From Escherichia coli (GTDB lineage: Bacteria > Pseudomonadota > Gammaproteobacteria > Enterobacterales > Enterobacteriaceae): DNA of 64,000 nucleotides. The notes under the pieces are model-generated. The model was not told the origin of the DNA. It searched no databases and saw nothing but the letters and a program-made list of their open reading frames with translations. The translations under genes and the position numbers were made by a program. Below, piece by piece: positions 13,125 through 41,291 of the stretch (position 1 is its first letter; each line of letters starts with the position of its first letter). The DNA lies in the NCBI RefSeq assembly GCF_965641715.1, contig NZ_OZ282453.1; one strand, written 5' to 3'.

Positions 13125-13310
13125 ATATGACAGGGTGAGGGGTAACCTCACATCCTGATTATTGACTAAGTGCGCGTTGTTCATGCCGGATGCGGCGTGA
13201 ACGCCTTATCCGGCCTACAAATCATGCAAATCCAAAATATTGCAGGAGTTATGTAGGCCTGATAAGCGTAGCGCATCAGGCATTTATGCGTTTAGGGTGA
13301 GGGATAACCT
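13125..13310. repeat. BIME-like cluster of REP palindromes between mltA and tcdA
   Basis: gccggatgcggcgtgaacgccttatccggcctac and gtaggcctgataagcgtagcgcatcaggc REP units flanked by gtgaggggtaacctcac-type palindromes. Confidence 0.6.
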
Positions 13311-17941: not shown

Positions 17942-19034
17942 GGTTGTATTGCTGTGCCGTCCGGGCTTTGAAAAAGAGTGCGCCGCAGAAATTACCGATA
18001 AAGCCGGCCAGCGGGAAATTTTCGGTTTTGCCCGCGTGAAAGAGAATGCGGGTTATGTCATTTATGAATGTTATCAACCTGATGATGGCGATAAGTTAAT
18101 CCGTGAGCTGCCGTTCAGTTCATTAATTTTTGCCCGCCAGTGGTTTGTGGTGGGGGAACTCCTGCAGCATTTGCCACCAGAAGATCGTATTACCCCCATT
18201 GTCGGCATGTTACAGGGTGTAGTAGAGAAGGGCGGTGAACTGCGTGTTGAAGTTGCCGATACCAACGAAAGCAAAGAATTGCTGAAATTCTGCCGTAAAT
18301 TCACCGTGCCGCTACGCGCTGCCTTGCGCGATGCGGGGGTGCTGGCGAACTATGAAACGCCGAAGCGTCCGGTAGTGCATGTATTCTTCATTGCACCAGG
18401 CTGCTGCTATACCGGTTACTCATACAGCAACAATAATTCGCCGTTCTATATGGGCATTCCGCGCCTGAAATTTCCGGCAGATGCGCCGAGTCGTTCCACG
18501 CTCAAACTGGAAGAGGCATTTCATGTGTTTATTCCTGCGGATGAGTGGGATGAACGCCTGGCGAACGGGATGTGGGCGGTGGATTTAGGCGCTTGCCCTG
18601 GCGGCTGGACCTACCAACTGGTGAAGCGCAACATGTGGGTTTATTCCGTCGACAACGGCCCGATGGCGCAAAGTCTGATGGATACCGGACAGGTGACGTG
18701 GCTACGGGAAGACGGGTTCAAATTCCGTCCGACACGCAGCAATATCTCCTGGATGGTATGCGATATGGTTGAAAAACCGGCGAAAGTTGCGGCATTGATG
18801 GCGCAGTGGCTGGTTAATGGCTGGTGCCGTGAAACCATTTTCAACCTCAAACTGCCGATGAAAAAACGCTACGAAGAAGTGTCACACAATCTGGCGTATA
18901 TTCAGGCACAGCTTGATGAACATGGCATAAATGCTCAGATTCAGGCGCGGCAGTTGTATCACGATCGCGAAGAAGTGACGGTGCACGTCCGTCGTATATG
19001 GGCTGCGGTGGGTGGTCGTCGCGACGAGCGATAA
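17934..19034 (+). CDS. rlmM: 23S rRNA 2'-O-ribose C2498 methyltransferase
   Basis: 366 aa recognised as RlmM/YgdE. Confidence 0.9.
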
Positions 19035-19077
19035 CAGGCAAGGCCGGGGCGTCGTTTCCGGCCTGCTACCCTTTCCG

Positions 19078-19809
19078 TCAGGCTGTTACCAAAGAAGTTG
19101 CAACCTGGCGCTCATCAGAAATAATGTGCGTTACCTCATCCAGATGCCCGATGCGGGCTTCCCCTGAACGATTAAATTTACTTTTATCAATCAATAACAA
19201 CGATTGCGCGGCACGTTTTAATAGCATCGATTTGTAATCAGCGTTGATGGCATTGGAGTCCCACAGTGCGCCGCTGCTATCGATCCCTTCACAAGAAAAA
19301 ATAAACAGATCGATTTCCAGCGATTTAAGTTGGGAAATCAGCGAGGGATTGACGTAACAGCCATATTTGCGCTCAAGTGTGCCGCCGGAACTGATCAGTT
19401 GAATGCGTTCACGTTTACCGAGTTCATGGCAAATCGGATGGCTATTGGTGAAGACCTGAATGTTGATGTCAGGCAACTGGCGTGCCAGATACCAGCAAGT
19501 TGAACTGGCGTCTAAGGCTATCACCATCCCTTCTTCAATCCACGCGAGCGCCTCGCGCGCGATATCTGCTTTATGCGCATAATGGCTTTTCAGCCGGATG
19601 TGAAAGGGATCGCCACTGTCTTGATTTTGACGGTGGATATATTTAGCGCGTCCATGATTGCGCAGAATTTTACCCTGCGTCTGTAATTCATTGAGATCGC
19701 GACGAATGGTTTCTTTACTGACCTTTAGCTGTTCAGAGAGAGCTTCCGTGGTCAGGCTGGTATGGTTCAGCAGCAGGTCGACTATCGCTTGCTGGCGTGC
19801 CGCTTTCAT
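19078..19809 (-). CDS. fucR: DeoR-family activator of the L-fucose regulon
   Basis: ORF track 19078-19818; DeoR HTH and sugar-binding domain; likely start at MKAARQQAIVDLL. Confidence 0.9.
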   Translation of the reverse strand: MKAARQQAIVDLLLNHTSLTTEALSEQLKVSKETIRRDLNELQTQGKILRNHGRAKYIHRQNQDSGDPFHIRLKSHYAHKADIAREALAWIEEGMVIALDASSTCWYLARQLPDINIQVFTNSHPICHELGKRERIQLISSGGTLERKYGCYVNPSLISQLKSLEIDLFIFSCEGIDSSGALWDSNAINADYKSMLLKRAAQSLLLIDKSKFNRSGEARIGHLDEVTHIISDERQVATSLVTA

Positions 19810-19866
19810 ATTTTTCACCCCATCATTCGATAACCGCCCGCGTCATGCGGGCGTACCGGTATGAGA

Positions 19867-20289
19867 TTACGGTGTTACCCCTTTTTTTAAAAGAATATTC
19901 CCGTACTTCGCTCGTTCGCCTGTGATAACGATCGCAAAGGCTTTTTGCGCCCGTTCATAAAACGCAAAACGATTGATGCGGATGATGTCAGGACAGGGAG
20001 CTTGTAGTGAAAGCGCATTACGGTAACGTCGTTCTACTTCAGGATCGAGAGTGTCACCTTCTACCGCTGCCATCATCACCAGCGGCGGTGCATAACTGTC
20101 CAGCTCAAATAACGGGATAATCGCCTGGAGCAAGTCGCTCACCAACAGGCCATCAGCGCGGATCACCTGCGGTCCCATCGAATGGGCGGGAAAGTGAGCA
20201 TCGGAAAAAATAATTTCATCTCCATGTCCCATCTCTGCCAGCACTTTCAATAGTTCGGGAGAAATTAACGGCGAAATTGTTTTCAGCAT
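19867..20289 (-). CDS. fucU: L-fucose mutarotase
   Basis: 140 aa RbsD/FucU family. Confidence 0.9.
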
Positions 20290-20290
20290 T

Positions 20291-21709
20291 TCACACTTCC
20301 TCTATAAATTCAGGTTCAGTTTGCGGGTAGAAATAACGGTACTGATAATGAATCTGTGCGCGGGCTTCTTCCGGGCTGTTAAATTCCCCTACGCCATACC
20401 AACCGAACAGCGCAGCTCCTGCGACGGTCGTTTCGGCATCGTCGAGAACTTTTACCGGAATATCAAGCATATTGGCTTTAATCTGATTCCACAATGTGTT
20501 GCGACTTCCTCCGCCGACTAACAATAATTCAGAGGCTTTAAAGTGGCCGATTTTTTCCAGCATCTGTAGATTGCGCTGTAATTGCGCAGTTAACCCTTCC
20601 AGCGCCGCGCGATAGAAATGCCCCCGCGTGGTATTAAGCGTCACTCCTTGCCAGCCAGCGTTCTGACACGACAATAAATCACACTGCATTTTCACGCCAT
20701 CCGCGCCAGGCGCGATCAGACGAGCCTCTTCAATCAACATTTGCCAGGGTGTTTCAGCCGTCCAGAACAGTTTTCTCACCCATTCCAGCACGCCGGATGC
20801 CAGCCATTGCATACCTGGGTTATACAACCCTGCCTGGCTATCCAGTTCGCAGGTGGAACCGGCGTACTGACTTAACAGCGAAGTATCAACCTGGGCGCTG
20901 CGAACCATTAAAATTTCCCATGTACCGGAAGAGAGCACGGGTTCATTTTGTTCAGCACCAGCGCCAAAAAGGGCGAACTGGGTATCGTGACCTGCGGACA
21001 TCACCGGTATGCCAACGGGTAAGCCGAGCATTGCTGCGGCGCTGTTCTGTAGCGTACCAATCTGTTCACCCGCTTCCACCAGACGAGGGAAGAGTCGGCG
21101 TGGAATACCGGTGGCTTGTAAAATTTGCGGACTGAAATCGCGTTGCTGGATATCCAGCATCTGGCTGGTTCCGGCCATCGTGATATCAGTAGTGAATTCG
21201 CCGGTTAAACGGTGGTTAATCAGCGACGAAATAAAGAGCCAGGCGTGCGCGCGTTCCAGCAGTTGTGGATGATTTTCTTTCAACCACACCAACTTATATA
21301 ACGTATTGAAACTAAAGGGTCCGACGCCAGAAATAGCCTGCAACCGCTGTGCGGAGATCAACTGTTCAATATTGTCCATAACCGCTGCTGTTCGCGGACA
21401 TTTCCAGCTAATGATCGGATAGAGCAGATTGCCTTGCTTATCTACCAGAGCGCCATCCACACCAAAGGTGGTGACGGCGATACCGCGGATGTGGCATTCA
21501 GTCAGTTCACTATTGATTTGCCGACAGCAATCAGCAAAGCGTTGCAAAATGGCATCTAAAGACCACTGGTGCCAGGTGTTGTTTTCCATCGCGATATCGC
21601 TGGCATTAGGCGTTGAGGCGCGGGCAACAATTTTTCCCTGCCGATTAACCGCGATGGCCCTGACATTGGTCGCGCCACAGTCGAGTACCAGGATAACTTC
21701 TTGTTTCAT
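20291..21709 (-). CDS. fucK: L-fuculokinase (FGGY kinase)
   Basis: ORF track 20291-21739; likely start at [15 protein letters not shown]. Confidence 0.9.
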
Positions 21710-21726
21710 AATCGCTCCTGCAATAT

Positions 21727-21752
21727 AGCCGGATAACATTGCTTATCCGGCT
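21727..21752. repeat. Intercistronic palindrome (REP-like hairpin) between fucI and fucK
   Basis: agccggataa-cattgc-ttatccggct perfect 10-bp inverted repeat. Confidence 0.5.
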
Positions 21753-21817
21753 AACCACTCTTGCTTGTTCAGGCCCGGTAGCCGGAGCGACCGGGCATCA
21801 CATCAGGGAGTAATGTA

Positions 21818-23593
21818 TTAACGCTTGTACAACGGACCGTAGTTCTGGCAAGCGCGGTAATCCTGGCCTTCAATATCCATGCCGTGCGCAGCCCAGGCAG
21901 AAGGACGATACACTTTGGTCTCTTCAACGTTGTGCATACATACCGGGATACGCAGCATGGAGGCGAGAGTGATAAAGTCTGCGCCAACGTGGCCGATGGT
22001 CAGAACCCCATGGTTAGCGCCCCAGTTCGCCATTACCGAGTACACATCCGTAAACGGCCCTTTACCGGTGAGGCGCGGTGCAAACCAGGTGGTTGGCCAG
22101 GTTGAGTTGGTGCGTTTGTTGAGGATGTCATGCACATCCTTCGGCAATTCCACGCTCCAGCCTTCCGCGATTTGCAGTACCGGTCCCAGGCCTTTGATGA
22201 TGTTGACACGAGTCATGGTGAACGGGACGCCGCCTTCGGTAAGGAAGCGGGAAGAGTAACCGCCGCCACGGAAGTATTCGTGGATCGCCGGGCACCATTC
22301 GGTAGCGGCGAGGCAAGCGTCAGCCTCTTGCTGAGAGATTTCCCAGTGCGGCTTCATCGTCGGGTTACCTTCGCTGTCGCGTTGTTTACAGGAACCGTCC
22401 AGCGCAGCAGAACCTGAGTTGATCAAATGGATGATGCCGTGTTCTGCCAGTCCATCGAGTTTATGCCCCGTTACACGCTCAATTGCTTCTGGTGACCAGT
22501 AGGTACGCACATCGGCAAATACCTGAGCGGTGCCGGTGAGCTGGTGACCCATTAGCATTGCCACGCCGTTAAGACTGTCGTTTTCGGTCGCCACGACAAA
22601 GGGTTCGCGCACGCCATTCCAGTCAAATGAACTGTTAAGGATCGCTTCGGCGGTGTCGCCATTGGGATATTGATCGGTCCAGTGGCGTTGTCCCTGGAAG
22701 CCCGCAGCGATGGCGTTGTAGCCAAGTGATTCTTCCACGCGACCAATATCGGCCAGTTTGCTGTTGCCTTGCATCATGTCGCGGATACACATCGCCATCA
22801 GTAAACTTTCGCGCAGAACAGCGCGGCTTTGCTCGGCATTACGTTGATACTGTTTGTTATTTTCATCTTCGCCATAGCGGAAGTTTTTATCAGCCCAGGC
22901 CAGCGCCATTTCCAGTTCGGCTTCGTCGTAAATCTTCTGATCGATACGGCGACGCAGTTCGGTCATATCCACCGCCTGGACTTTCATTCCCAGCCAGGAT
23001 TCAAAGAAGTTGTGATCAACAATGGAACCGGCGATACCCATCGAAACGCCGCCCAGCGACAGATAGCTTTTACCTTTCATACTGGCGACGGCCAAACCGG
23101 CGCGGGCAAAGCGCAGCAGTTTTTCTTCAACATCGGCAGGAATCGATGTGTCATCGGCATCCTGAACGTCATGACCGTAAATGGAGAATGCCGGGATGCC
23201 TTTCTGGCTGTGAGCTGCCAGAGCCGCGGCCAGGTAAACAGCGCCGGGGCGTTCAGTGCCGTTAAAGCCCCAAATGGCTTTCGGGCGGGTTGGATCCATG
23301 TCGATGGTTTCACTGCCATAGCACCAGCAAGGCGTTACCGTAATGGTGAGGCCTACATTCTGACTGCTAAATTTTTCTTCGCAAGCCGCGGCTTCAGCCA
23401 TACCCGCGATACAGGTATCGGAAATGACACACTCGACGGCAGCTCCGCAGGCATGGCGCAGTTTCTCGGTCAGCAGTGCGGCCGTAGCTTTCGCCATATT
23501 CATTGTTTGTTCTTCAAGCGACTCACGAACACCCATGCGACGACCGTCAATAACCGGGCGGATACCAATTTTCGGTAAGCTGATTTTTTTCAT
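21818..23593 (-). CDS. fucI: L-fucose isomerase
   Basis: 591 aa recognised as FucI. Confidence 0.95.
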
Positions 23594-23625
23594 TACAGAT
23601 TCCTCACTTTATTCGGAAAATATGT

Positions 23626-24942
23626 TCAGTTAGTTGCCGTTTGAGAACGGAAACGGGCAAAGATAAAGATGACCGCGAAGCAGAGTGCGGGGATCAGTTC
23701 AGCAGTGGGGATGTTGCCCGCCGCGTCACTGACAAAACCCATGACCGGAGTGACAATACCGCCGCCAATGATGGTCATAACGATGAAGGACGAACCGTAT
23801 TTGGTGTCCTGGCCGAGATTCTTAATGCCCAGCGAGAAGATTGTTGGGTACTGAATCGACATAAAGGCGCTGCATAAAGTCAGGGCTATTAAGCCCACAT
23901 GACCGCCAGCGAAGGCTGAGATCAGGCACAGTGCCATAGCGATTAATGCGTAGGCGGCCAGGACTTTGTGTGGTGCGAAGCGACTGATGAGCCAGGTACC
24001 GGTGAAACGACCAATAAAGAAGCACACCATGGTTCCGGTTAAATAGTTAGCGGCAAAGCCTGCAGTCATACCTGGAATTTCTTCTACAGCGTAGCGAATC
24101 AAATAGCTCCAGCAGGCCGTTTGTGCGCCAACGTAGCAGAATTGCGCTAATACTGCCCAGCGCCAGTGGCGAATACGCGCCAGGCGAGAAAGCGATGCGG
24201 AGAACGATCCTTGTTTGGCGTCACTGTGATTATCACTCTGCAATGCCGGGAATTTCGTCAGCATGATCAGCAGGGCGACCAGTAACACGATAGCCACGAT
24301 GATCATATAAGGTGTCTGTACCGATAATACCAGGCTGTGTTTATACGCACTCAATTGCTCTGGAGACATTTTATCGAGAACGTCTTGCGATTGATGCGGC
24401 ACGTTAGACAAAATAAGACTTTGCCCAAAGACAACCGCGATAATTGCGCCAAATGAGTTAAATGTTTGCGCAAGATTTAAGCGGAAGTGACCACTGCTTT
24501 CCGGCCCTAATACCGTAACAAAAGGGTTTGCGGCAGTTTCCAGACAACCTAATCCGGCTGCAATAATAAATAGGCCAACTAAAAATAAGGTGTAGTTCAT
24601 TATTTCTGCGGCGGGCCAGAATAATGCAGCACCCAAGGCATATAAAAATAACCCGGTAATAATTCCTGCTTTATAACTGAGTTTTTTCATCAATATCCCA
24701 GCAGGGATTGGGATAATGAAATAACCAAAGTAAAAGGCCGATTGGATCAGGCCAGCCTGGAAATTTGTCAGTGTAAAAGCCTGCTGGAATTGAGGTAATA
24801 AAATGTCGTTAAGGTTATTGGCTACCGCCCAAAGAAAAAACAGTGAGCACAGCAGCGCGAATGGAATAATGTAACTTCTGCTTTGCCCTGCATCTTTATC
24901 TACCGCACGGTAACTCTGCGTTTGTATTGATGTGTTTCCCAT
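23626..24942 (-). CDS. fucP: L-fucose:H+ symporter (MFS)
   Basis: 438 aa, 12-TM MFS protein recognised as FucP. Confidence 0.95.
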   Translation of the reverse strand: MGNTSIQTQSYRAVDKDAGQSRSYIIPFALLCSLFFLWAVANNLNDILLPQFQQAFTLTNFQAGLIQSAFYFGYFIIPIPAGILMKKLSYKAGIITGLFLYALGAALFWPAAEIMNYTLFLVGLFIIAAGLGCLETAANPFVTVLGPESSGHFRLNLAQTFNSFGAIIAVVFGQSLILSNVPHQSQDVLDKMSPEQLSAYKHSLVLSVQTPYMIIVAIVLLVALLIMLTKFPALQSDNHSDAKQGSFSASLSRLARIRHWRWAVLAQFCYVGAQTACWSYLIRYAVEEIPGMTAGFAANYLTGTMVCFFIGRFTGTWLISRFAPHKVLAAYALIAMALCLISAFAGGHVGLIALTLCSAFMSIQYPTIFSLGIKNLGQDTKYGSSFIVMTIIGGGIVTPVMGFVSDAAGNIPTAELIPALCFAVIFIFARFRSQTATN

Positions 24943-25488
24943 AGCATCCTCTTAGGTTCAGAAGCTTAAGCACGTAATCGGTTATGTTTTCAAAAGTGCA
25001 AAACCAGCGAGTTCGGGCTTCATATCAGTGAATATTTGCCTGTCTGAAATGAACTCATGGATTCATTTTCAAATAAAAAACGCTCTGTAATATGACGGCG
25101 GTCACACTTATTAGCTGGAAGGTGACTTTATGTGACTACCATCACTTTAATAATCGAAATTTCATGCCCGTTTCAGAAAATAAATCATAAAAAACACAAA
25201 CCAGATGACCGTATTAATTGTTTATGCCGAAAACGGGCATTCCTGGCTTAGGTGAATAGAAAAATGACCGTTTTGATAAATATTTTTAAGAGCGGTCATT
25301 TTTAATGGGGTTATAAAAAGAGAACTTGCAGTTATTTACTGTGATTAGTTGAACCAGGTCACAAAATATAAGCTTGTGAATTTCTTTCTGGTTAATCAGG
25401 AAGAAGATGGTGGGTAATTAAACGGCTAATTCAATAGTGTGAAAGGAACAACATTATTGCCCTGTTTTGAATCAGAGAGAGGTAGCTA
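24943..25488. promoter_or_regulatory. Divergent fucPIKUR / fucAO control region
   Basis: 546-bp AT-rich intergenic region between divergent fucP and fucA starts; individual CRP/FucR sites not mapped here. Confidence 0.6.
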
Positions 25489-26136
25489 ATGGAACGAAAT
25501 AAACTTGCTCGTCAGATTATTGACACTTGCCTGGAAATGACCCGCCTGGGACTGAACCAGGGGACAGCGGGGAACGTCAGTGTACGTTATCAGGATGGGA
25601 TGCTGATTACGCCTACAGGCATTCCATATGAAAAACTGACGGAGTCGCATATTGTCTTTATTGATGGCAACGGTAAACATGAGGAAAGAAAGCTCCCCTC
25701 AAGCGAATGGCGTTTCCATATGGCGGCCTATCAAAGCAGACCGGATGCCAACGCGGTTGTTCACAATCATGCCGTTCATTGCACAGCAGTTTCCATTCTT
25801 AACCGACCGATCCCCGCTATTCACTACATGATTGCGGCGGCTGGCGGTAATTCTATTCCTTGCGCGCCTTATGCGACCTTTGGAACACGCGAACTTTCTG
25901 AACATGTTGCGCTGGCTCTCAAAAATCGTAAGGCAACTTTGTTACAACATCATGGGCTTATCGCTTGTGAGGTGAATCTGGAAAAAGCGTTATGGCTGGC
26001 GCATGAAGTTGAAGTGCTGGCGCAACTTTACCTGACGACCCTGGCGATTACGGACCCGGTGCCAGTGCTGAGCGATGAAGAGATTGCCGTAGTGCTGGAG
26101 AAATTCAAAACCTATGGGTTACGGATTGAAGAGTAA
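25489..26136 (+). CDS. fucA: L-fuculose-1-phosphate aldolase (class II)
   Basis: 215 aa recognised as FucA. Confidence 0.95.
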   Translation: MERNKLARQIIDTCLEMTRLGLNQGTAGNVSVRYQDGMLITPTGIPYEKLTESHIVFIDGNGKHEERKLPSSEWRFHMAAYQSRPDANAVVHNHAVHCTAVSILNRPIPAIHYMIAAAGGNSIPCAPYATFGTRELSEHVALALKNRKATLLQHHGLIACEVNLEKALWLAHEVEVLAQLYLTTLAITDPVPVLSDEEIAVVLEKFKTYGLRIEE

Positions 26137-26163
26137 TTTCGTAAAGCAACAAGGAGAAGGATG

Positions 26164-27312
26164 ATGGCTAACAGAATGATTCTGAACGAAACGGCATGGT
26201 TTGGTCGGGGTGCTGTTGGGGCTTTAACCGATGAGGTGAAACGTCGTGGTTATCAGAAGGCGCTGATCGTCACCGATAAAACGCTGGTGCAATGCGGCGT
26301 GGTGGCGAAAGTGACCGATAAGATGGATGCTGCAGGGCTGGCATGGGCGATTTATGACGGCGTAGTACCCAACCCAACAATTACTGTCGTCAAAGAAGGG
26401 CTCGGTGTATTCCAGAATAGCGGCGCGGATTACCTGATCGCTATTGGTGGTGGTTCTCCACAGGATACTTGTAAAGCGATTGGCATTATCAGCAACAACC
26501 CGGAGTTTGCCGATGTGCGTAGCCTGGAAGGACTTTCCCCGACCAATAAACCCAGTGTACCGATTCTGGCAATCCCCACCACAGCAGGCACTGCGGCAGA
26601 AGTGACCATTAACTACGTGATCACTGACGAAGAAAAACGGCGCAAGTTTGTTTGCGTTGATCCGCATGATATCCCGCAGGTGGCGTTTATTGACGCTGAC
26701 ATGATGGATGGTATGCCTCCAGCGCTGAAAGCTGCGACGGGTGTCGATGCGCTCACTCATGCTATTGAGGGGTATATTACCCGTGGCGCGTGGGCGCTAA
26801 CCGATGCACTGCACATTAAAGCGATTGAAATCATTGCTGGGGCGCTGCGAGGATCTGTTGCTGGTGATAAGGATGCCGGAGAAGAAATGGCGCTCGGGCA
26901 GTATGTTGCGGGTATGGGCTTCTCGAATGTTGGGTTAGGGTTGGTGCATGGTATGGCGCATCCACTGGGCGCGTTTTACAACACTCCACACGGTGTTGCG
27001 AACGCCATCCTGTTACCGCATGTCATGCTCTATAACGCTGACTTTACCGGTGAGAAGTACCGCGATATCGCGCGCGTTATGGGTGTGAAAGTGGAAGGTA
27101 TGAGCCTGGAAGAGGCGCGTAATGCCGCTGTTGAAGCGGTGTTTGCTCTCAACCGTGATGTCGGTATTCCGCCACATTTGCGTGATGTTGGTGTACGCAA
27201 GGAAGACATTCCGGCACTGGCTCAGGCGGCACTGGATGATGTTTGTACCGGTGGCAACCCGCGTGAAGCAACGCTTGAGGATATTGTAGAGCTTTACCAT
27301 ACCGCCTGGTAA
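26164..27312 (+). CDS. fucO: L-1,2-propanediol oxidoreductase (iron-dependent ADH)
   Basis: ORF begins MMANRM; second Met taken as start; Fe-ADH family. Confidence 0.9.
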   Translation: MANRMILNETAWFGRGAVGALTDEVKRRGYQKALIVTDKTLVQCGVVAKVTDKMDAAGLAWAIYDGVVPNPTITVVKEGLGVFQNSGADYLIAIGGGSPQDTCKAIGIISNNPEFADVRSLEGLSPTNKPSVPILAIPTTAGTAAEVTINYVITDEEKRRKFVCVDPHDIPQVAFIDADMMDGMPPALKAATGVDALTHAIEGYITRGAWALTDALHIKAIEIIAGALRGSVAGDKDAGEEMALGQYVAGMGFSNVGLGLVHGMAHPLGAFYNTPHGVANAILLPHVMLYNADFTGEKYRDIARVMGVKVEGMSLEEARNAAVEAVFALNRDVGIPPHLRDVGVRKEDIPALAQAALDDVCTGGNPREATLEDIVELYHTAW

Positions 27313-27324
27313 ATGCGCTGATGT

Positions 27325-27366
27325 GATAATGCCGGATACGACGTTTGCGGCGTATCCGGCTCGCCG
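27325..27366. repeat. REP element between fucO and xni
   Basis: gccggatacgacgtttgcggcgtatccggc palindrome. Confidence 0.6.
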
Positions 27367-41255: not shown

Positions 41256-41291
41256 GTAGGCCGGATAAGGCGTTAACGCCGCATCCGGCAT
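41256..41291. repeat. REP element between gudD and barA
   Basis: gtaggccggataaggcgttaacgccgcatccggcat palindrome. Confidence 0.6.

Follow-up and report, generated by a model that had tools for sequence, protein, structure and literature searches.

Background

The malEFG operon is the paradigm for what a repeat between two genes of one transcript can do to its expression: once the transcript has been cut by an endonuclease, PNPase and RNase II are halted at the REP hairpin that separates malE from malF. More generally, REPs have been reported to make upstream mRNA more stable, to serve as terminators and to aid Rho-dependent termination (PMC3333891, PMC2817692). Among 34 E. coli gene pairs with a stabilised 5' gene, the stabilised segment ends at a stable hairpin in 26 (76%) (PMC5927463). 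A second described system is Rho-dependent attenuation at BIMEs (Espeli et al. 2001, as cited in PMC3333891 and PMC2817692).

A canonical REP is an extragenic, imperfect palindrome of 20-40 nt with an inner stem and a small apical loop. Its outer stem is GCCGGAT...ATCCGGC (or GCCTGAT), it carries a GTAG tag 5' of the stem, and it occurs in many dispersed copies. Two opposite REPs with a short linker form a BIME, and in the BIME-1 (RIP) type the linker contains an IHF site, WATCAANNNNTTR. The insertion sequence IS1397 is reported to be REP-specific in its insertion (PMC1525189, PMC3333891).

This work will focus on the gap between fucI and fucK in the fucose operon of E. coli. We lean, with a little more belief than doubt, towards the reading that this gap holds a decayed REP/BIME whose two hairpins act as a 3' barrier of the malE-malF type and give about 3:1 mRNA on its two sides.

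Results and discussion

The gap and its two hairpins

The window, as we call the whole 64,000-nucleotide stretch of Escherichia coli DNA analysed here, carries the fucPIKUR operon on its minus strand. The gene for L-fucose isomerase, fucI (CDS 21818-23593, minus strand), is the upstream and more abundant mRNA segment, and the gene for L-fuculokinase, fucK (CDS 20291-21709, minus strand), is the downstream segment, with about 3-fold less abundant mRNA. The intercistronic gap of 108 nt (21710-21817, minus strand) is defined by the open reading frames and the K-12 annotation and is transcribed within the fucPIKUR mRNA. It extends exactly from the fucI stop to the fucK start, as an earlier note on this DNA had it. 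The gap is identical at 108 of 108 positions to MG1655 2937360-2937467, and a 401-nt query spanning the site matched 5,424 of 5,426 complete E. coli genomes at 95-100% identity. For the RNA of the entire gap the folding energy is -46.4 kcal/mol (z = -4.0 to -4.6).

Within the gap lies a perfect 11+6+11 palindrome (21726-21753, minus strand). Its arms are TAGCCGGATAA (21726-21736) and TTATCCGGCTA (21743-21753), and the 6-nt spacer between them is CATTGC (loop 21737-21742). The earlier note quoted this sequence correctly as a perfect inverted repeat but gave it 10 bp where there are 11. Since the operon is on the minus strand, the palindrome in the mRNA is 5'-UAGCCGGAUAAGCAAUGUUAUCCGGCUA-3', which divides into UAGCCGGAUAA-GCAAUG-UUAUCCGGCUA. 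The palindrome is far beyond chance. We calculate that 108 nt should hold about 3e-4 perfect inverted repeats of 11 bp whose loop is at most 10 nt, and in the window the pattern GCCGGATAA-N(0-30)-TTATCCGGC has one occurrence, where 100 shuffles gave an expectation of 0.00. The RNA hairpin has a folding energy of -16.7 to -17.5 kcal/mol (z = -4.8 to -6.4), a stability that none of 200 shuffles reached. The value of -16.7 kcal/mol is inside the canonical REP range of -11.5 to -19.5.

The earlier note had missed a second hairpin, which we call hairpin 1. It sits 19 nt upstream of the palindrome on the mRNA (21773-21796, minus strand), has the form GCCCGGUCGC-UCCG-GCUACCGGGC and folds at -18.2 kcal/mol. 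The 19-nt linker between the two hairpins, CUGAACAAGCAAGAGUGGU (21754-21772, minus strand), is A-rich and is unpaired or weakly paired in the MFE structure.

The other end of the palindrome is 6 nt upstream of the fucK Shine-Dalgarno AGGAG (21715-21719, minus strand; fucK ATG at 21707-21709, minus strand). With a hairpin this near, and with an in-frame ATG inside its loop (21737-21739, minus strand) that yields an older, longer fucK ORF of 482 aa, one could argue that the element is translational, either insulating or tuning the fucK ribosome-binding site or offering an alternative start. We give this argument very little credence. The predicted unpaired probability from the Shine-Dalgarno to the AUG is 0.41, against 0.42 with an arm shuffled and 0.40 with the palindrome deleted. 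The loop ATG is without a Shine-Dalgarno and is destroyed in 32 E. coli genomes (loop GCAAUA) and in E. albertii (GCCAUA), so the annotated 472-aa fucK start at 21709 is the real one; this start and its Shine-Dalgarno are kept in all orthologues examined. An effect on translation alone would also not explain an mRNA step that reaches unchanged into fucU. Insulation of the ribosome-binding site was rejected as a candidate in its own right, the partition-function accessibility of Shine-Dalgarno and AUG being the same with or without the hairpin.

A leaky intrinsic terminator, at which RNA polymerase would stop in some rounds of transcription, is another idea. The hairpin is stable, contains GC and is in the right place, there is a threefold mRNA step, and other genera have a true hairpin with a T-run in this gap. 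An intrinsic terminator has an immediate U-tract after its hairpin, and here the sequence after the stem is UAUAUUGCAGG (tail UAUAUUGC), with no U-tract, while hairpin 1 is followed by CUGAACAAG. A scan for consensus promoters and terminators made no call in the gap on either strand. Without a U-tract the palindrome is not an intrinsic terminator; the partial termination that the earlier note had raised as a possibility is not supported in the intrinsic sense, and Rho-independent stopping here strikes us as highly improbable.

Comparison with other genera

The fucK neighbourhoods of 45 species-representative genomes were collected and the fucI-fucK gap was extracted from each. In about 25 genomes of Citrobacter, Klebsiella, Salmonella and Raoultella planticola the gap consists of two canonical inverted REPs, a BIME, of which GCCCGGTGGCGCAAGCTTACCGGGCCTAC ... 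GTAGGCCGGATAAGCGCAGCGCCATCCGGC is an example. A MAFFT alignment puts hairpin 1 of E. coli on the left REP GCCCGGTGGCGCAAGCTTACCGGGCCTAC and the palindrome on the right REP GTAGGCCGGATAAGCGCAGCGCCATCCGGC, with which it aligns column for column in 23 orthologous gaps. Compared with these orthologues, the E. coli copy has a REP head shorter by 5-10 nt. A change of its 3' arm from CCATCCGGC to TTATCCGGC makes the two arms perfectly complementary. E. whittamii has no palindrome at all; its gap is 54 nt long and holds the left hairpin only.

We built a covariance model, R1, solely from 17 of the orthologous right-hand REPs. Its top matches in the E. coli window are at 13253-13281 (33.4 bits), 13185-13218 (32.0) and 41256-41289 (30.4), with E ~1e-5, and the fourth-best match is the fuc palindrome in mRNA orientation (16.2 bits, E = 0.12). 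The model ranks canonical E. coli REPs first and the palindrome fourth, which shows the orthologues to be true REPs and the element of E. coli to be a degenerate copy. The left-hand REP type is likewise a dispersed repeat: in 80 metagenome loci it has 92 matches, only 1 of them at fucI-fucK, and 53 of the 92 GCCCGGT-type matches are then followed by an inverted GTAGGCCGGAT REP within 70 nt. Pairing of this kind is the norm for these REP types. The 7.4-kb orthologous loci contain no extra copies of the left-hand REP.

The orthologous REPs, the R1 scores and an IS1397 insertion in the canonical register, discussed below, lead us to call the palindrome a decayed, symmetrised REP and not an element made for this operon. 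By its alignment it is the right-hand REP of a relic BIME, with hairpin 1 as the decayed left-hand REP, of GCCCGGT type, of the same BIME. The ancestor of Escherichia, Citrobacter, Klebsiella and Salmonella would then have carried a BIME between fucI and fucK, and in Escherichia the right-hand REP would have lost its inner stem and its GTAG tag to become a perfect 11-bp palindrome of about canonical REP stability.

It is important to be clear about how far the fuc palindrome is still a REP. Like REPs and BIMEs, it is extragenic and intercistronic, transcribed inside an operon, and 28 nt in size, with a stem GCCGGAUAA/UUAUCCGGC that includes the outer stem GCCGGAU...AUCCGGC and the GGAUAAG arm. 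An opposite second palindrome is found about 20 nt away (21773-21796 against 21726-21753, with the 19-nt linker), the hairpin energy is in the REP range, and descent is indicated by positional homology with the canonical REPs of the sister genera. Unlike REPs, the fuc palindrome is perfect, an 11-bp stem with a 6-nt loop and without the internal mismatch and inner stem. Its tag region is GGUUAGCC where the canonical one is GUAGGCC, so that the tag reads GUUAG. It scores about half the bits of a canonical REP, and it is single-copy, the 40-nt version being found at a median of 1 place per genome in 5,424 genomes. The left partner differs as well: its GCCCGGT type, frequent in Klebsiella and Citrobacter, is seen nowhere else in this window. 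The palindrome thus departs from the class in its GTAG tag, inner stem and copy number and agrees with it in ancestry, BIME arrangement and recognition by IS1397. We file it as a decayed REP that, by analogy, probably still works like one.

Binding of IHF, Pol I and gyrase to REPs and BIMEs has been reported, and a perfect 11-6-11 palindrome resembles a dimer operator. The element could on these grounds be a site in the DNA, bound by gyrase, IHF, Pol I, TnpA-REP or a regulator such as FucR, or a barrier to supercoiling. We find this hardly plausible. Read directly on both strands, the linker CTGAACAAGCAAGAGTGGT does not contain the IHF motif WATCAANNNNTTR, which also sets the pair apart from BIME-1. 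Gyrase binding is described for BIME-2 arrays, not for single pairs. The GTAG tag of canonical REPs is broken, which argues, as far as sequence can, against binding or cleavage activity of TnpA-REP (RAYT). We rejected an operator role, there being no GCCGGATAA-like motif in the fucA-fucP control region (24943-25488).

An Rfam scan by E-value of 19000-26500 found no family in the gap, the supplementary files of RepRanger do not list the fucI-fucK locus, and our literature searches found no paper tying fucI or fucK to a REP or BIME. The NC_000913.3 annotation has no repeat feature in the gap and none at the canonical tcdA-mltA BIME either, so the missing annotation is uninformative.

Some other observations on repeats and assemblies belong here. 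The BIME just mentioned, canonical with two inverted REPs and a long linker, is at 13183-13281 between tcdA and mltA, and a single canonical REP is at 41256-41289. The 12-mer ATATTGCAGGAG is common to the tcdA-mltA BIME linker (13236-13247) and, as its reverse complement, to 21713-21724, directly after the palindrome and running into the fucK Shine-Dalgarno. This could be chance, or it could be a remnant of a BIME linker joined at the CAGGAG microhomology. A hairpin GCCGGATAC-gacgtttgcggc-GTATCCGGC at 27331-27360, 19 nt past the fucO stop, is REP-like in its outer stem and scores just 10-11 bits with the REP model. Among the collected loci, one labelled Serratia marcescens (L008) has REPs of the Citrobacter/Klebsiella type and 84% FucK identity, which is odd for Serratia. 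Another, from Agrococcus sp. HG114 (L044, a 382-bp contig with coverage 0.9), matches E. coli fucK at 99% identity, and this actinobacterial assembly is almost certainly contaminated there.

Insertion of IS1397 in the palindrome

E. coli BH100 (NZ_CP025251.1, L047:2570-4001) has an annotated IS1397 of 1,432 bp within the palindrome, between fucI and fucK, and is the only genome with a split site among the 5,424. The 4-bp target-site duplication is TAAC (21734-21737), with the junctions ...GGATAAC[TGAACTG...CAGTTCA]TAACATTGC... We checked the target geometry of IS1397 directly on genomes at four further sites: downstream of yhjD, near rrf, between znuB and ruvB, and downstream of mobB. Each lies in the apical loop of a canonical REP with the form GTAGGCCGGATAAGAyGCG[TSD]GCrTCGCATCCGGC. 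In 4 of 4 canonical REPs, and in the fuc palindrome as well, exactly 14 nt lie between the end of the duplication and the end of the ATCCGGC arm. Judging from this shared register, and with the specificity itself taken from the literature, the IS1397 transposase treated the fuc palindrome as a REP. The BH100 insertion is a natural disruption of the palindrome, and it could have polarity on fucK-U-R.

In several other E. coli strains (L053, L054, L056 and L057) the same IS1397 copy occupies a REP, with a frameshifted transposase of the IS110 family beside it and a 5S rRNA gene just downstream. This looks like an insertion cluster in REPs that the strains share, probably by clonal descent.

Conservation within Escherichia

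The alleles of a 40-nt segment were compared in 5,424 genomes. The reference loop GCAAUG is found in 4,910, and 514 have one mismatch: ACAAUG in 477, GCAAUA in 32, and another single mismatch in 5. The stem is therefore invariant in at least 5,419 of the 5,424 genomes, and at most 5 could differ in the 22 stem positions or the flanks. The conservation across E. coli that the earlier note had proposed as a check is thus borne out. E. albertii (loop GCCAUA) and another Escherichia species (loop ACAAUG) show loop differences only. In one divergent lineage of E. coli the upstream 62 nt of the gap carry 7 changes, and the stretch from the linker to the start codon carries none. Variable positions number 3 of 6 in the loop against 0 of 22 in the stem (simple hypergeometric p ~0.006). 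From the alignments this pattern agrees with constraint on the stem; the stem could instead be fixed through low divergence or loop-specific mutability.

It can be argued that the palindrome is a neutral relic, a decayed REP without a selected role. The mRNA step would then come from hairpin 1, from Rho acting on an untranslated gap of 108 nt, or from faster decay of a less translated fucK-fucU segment. Repeats do pile up in this gap in other genera (REP pairs, a single REP and an ERIC-like element in L010 and L042), which suggests a permissive site, and E. whittamii does without the palindrome. The score from the covariance model is weak, at 16 bits against 30-33, the RNA-seq is at gene resolution only, and most protective structures lie inside the downstream ORF, at a mean of about 107 nt in (PMC5927463). 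Against neutrality, neither the 5,424 genomes nor the two further Escherichia species have a common variant at the 22 stem positions, whereas the loop varies at 3 of its 6; stability at the level of a REP has been kept despite the loss of the inner stem; and every genus retains some strong hairpin here. Neutrality is the main rival of our reading, and we consider it less likely than not.

The mRNA step and a possible mechanism

The expression data come from Kim et al. 2019 (PMC6410053, Table S2), who grew MG1655 in M9-fucose and give RPKM for three replicates. The values are 9,957, 10,783 and 12,930 for fucP (mean 11,223) and 10,507, 13,627 and 13,529 for fucI (mean 12,555), a fucI/fucP ratio of 1.12 (PMC6410053). 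For fucK they are 3,281, 4,645 and 4,920 (mean 4,282; fucK/fucI = 0.34, 0.31-0.36) and for fucU 3,257, 4,884 and 4,769 (mean 4,303; fucU/fucK = 1.00) (PMC6410053). There is about a threefold mRNA step from fucI to fucK and none at fucP-fucI or fucK-fucU, at per-gene resolution, so that the step could arise at hairpin 1, inside fucK, or via a lower ribosome load on fucK-U.

A second dataset gives the same picture. In EHEC EDL933 in bovine gut contents, the log2FC against M9-glucose in four conditions is 3.6, 4.4, 2.6 and 5.1 for fucP, 4.1, 4.5, 2.9 and 5.4 for fucI, and 2.5, 2.4, not differentially expressed and 3.3 for fucK (PMC6199705). The difference between fucI and fucK is 1.6-2.1, a step of about 3-4 fold. 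Basal fucI and fucK levels are just ~1.4 fold apart, so baseline differences do not explain it. The earlier note had proposed differential expression of fucP/fucI versus fucK/fucU/fucR, with a step in RNA-seq coverage across the gap as the check. A step between fucP/fucI and fucK/fucU is seen, at gene resolution only, in the RPKM of MG1655 (PMC6410053), and the same step recurs in EDL933. The Term-seq tables of Adams et al. 2021 have no 3' end in the gap, but the fuc operon was uninduced there; in Dar & Sorek 2018 fucPIKUR appears solely in the operon list, and fuc was off under the conditions used.

The structure, the descent from a REP, the fixed stem throughout the species and the threefold step at gene level are shown here; from them we infer both that the hairpin causes the step and the route by which it would do so, an exonuclease barrier or attenuation. 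On the barrier reading, the fucPIKUR mRNA would be cleaved, or released by Rho, downstream of the hairpins, and 3'-to-5' exonucleases would halt at the hairpin as they do at the malE-malF REPs. Because they halt there, fucP-fucI would outlive fucK-fucU, and the steady-state mRNA would be about 3:1. The barrier may possibly be combined with Rho-dependent release in the untranslated gap.

The likeness to malE-malF is close. In both, an intercistronic REP hairpin follows the more abundant 5' segment of a sugar-utilisation operon, with a several-fold excess upstream; at fucI-fucK the boundary hairpins are stable (-16.7 and -18.2 kcal/mol) and fucK/fucI is 0.34. The two differ in that half-lives, 3' ends and the effects of deletions have been measured for malEFG, whereas fucI-fucK is known from gene-level steady-state RNA-seq and has a decayed REP. 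Compared with the Rho-dependent attenuation at BIMEs of Espeli et al. 2001, as the citing papers (PMC3333891, PMC2817692) present it, the fuc gap is similar in its REP pair, its untranslated intercistronic stretch and its reduced downstream transcript, and dissimilar in having no marked region of C over G. The C/G ratio in the gap is at most 1.3, so there is no marked C-rich, G-poor region resembling a rut site, a property that is not diagnostic. We infer that a REP-type 3' exonuclease barrier or attenuator is the most likely role, and by analogy with these systems the hairpin probably helps to yield more FucP and FucI than FucK and FucU.

Fucose-grown cells accumulate and export fuculose, for which the authors blame insufficient fucK expression plus ATP depletion (PMC6410053). 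If the hairpin sets a ratio of about 3:1 between fucPI and fucKU, it would explain the excess of isomerase over kinase and the fuculose spill on fucose. This would bear on studies of gut colonisation and on the engineering of strains for 2'-fucosyllactose, fuculose or 1,2-propanediol. It would also mean that a REP too decayed for repeat catalogues can still act as an intercistronic regulator. The understanding of how REPs work is unchanged by the fuc element.

Different structured elements at the boundary

All 43 of the 43 enterobacterial fucI-fucK gaps are strongly structured (z -1.3 to -7.7), and they are not structured by the same sequence. About ten genera or species have a GC hairpin with a T-run just upstream of the fucK Shine-Dalgarno instead of REPs. 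They include Enterobacter sp., Raoultella terrigena, Kluyvera, Kosakonia and Symbiopectobacterium, and a terminator was called in two of the loci (L021 and L041). These attenuators resemble terminators and share with the E. coli hairpins the same position and strong GC hairpins; they differ in having a T-run, for example GCCCTTTCATCGCGAAAGGGC TTTTTTTG, which the E. coli hairpins are without. Citrobacter amalonaticus (L010:2817-3000) and Citrobacter sp. MGH106 (L042:2882-3000) carry a different structured repeat of about 120-180 nt, ending ...TGCAACGTGAAATATGACGGGTATGACGGG, which we take to resemble an ERIC/IRU element.

A hairpin after fucI is universal, and its sequence is not. This would be expected under selection for a boundary element, and also if the site tolerates repeats. 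We can tentatively go further and suppose that the boundary has undergone functional turnover. An ancestral terminator-like attenuator, retained in Kosakonia, Kluyvera, Enterobacter and Raoultella terrigena, would have been replaced in other lineages by REP pairs or an ERIC-like element, and in Escherichia the REP would have been remodelled into a perfect palindrome and fixed throughout the species because its stem sets the FucI:FucK ratio. We offer this as a conjecture that is more doubtful than not. If it is true, a selfish repeat has been domesticated as an element that sets stoichiometry, with consequences such as fuculose overflow. If the hairpin does set the mRNA ratio, a terminator-like hairpin, a REP pair, an ERIC-like repeat and a decayed REP at one junction would make a compact case of the substitution of structured elements.

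The fucU-fucR gap

The earlier note had treated fucK, fucU and fucR as one class. On fucose, the RPKM of fucR is 246, 281 and 340 (mean 289), and fucR/fucU is 0.068 (PMC6410053). This further 15-fold drop is larger than that at fucI-fucK. It falls at another hairpin, the one between fucU and fucR, so that fucR does not share an expression class with fucK/fucU. The interpretation in that note is, overall, partly supported. The fucU-fucR hairpin is CGCCCGC-AUGAC-GCGGGCG (19835-19853, minus strand; -15.6 kcal/mol), with a weak U tail GUUAUCG, and the fucU-to-fucR drop of MG1655 on fucose coincides with it. As a point of attenuation it is stronger than the gap between fucI and fucK.

On glucose the RPKM climbs along the operon, from 1.3 for fucP through 3.0 for fucI, 4.1 for fucK and 19 for fucU to 27 for fucR (fucK, fucU and fucR at 19078-21709). 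This climb implies constitutive internal promoter activity upstream of fucU and fucR, and the internal promoter is probably located inside fucK.
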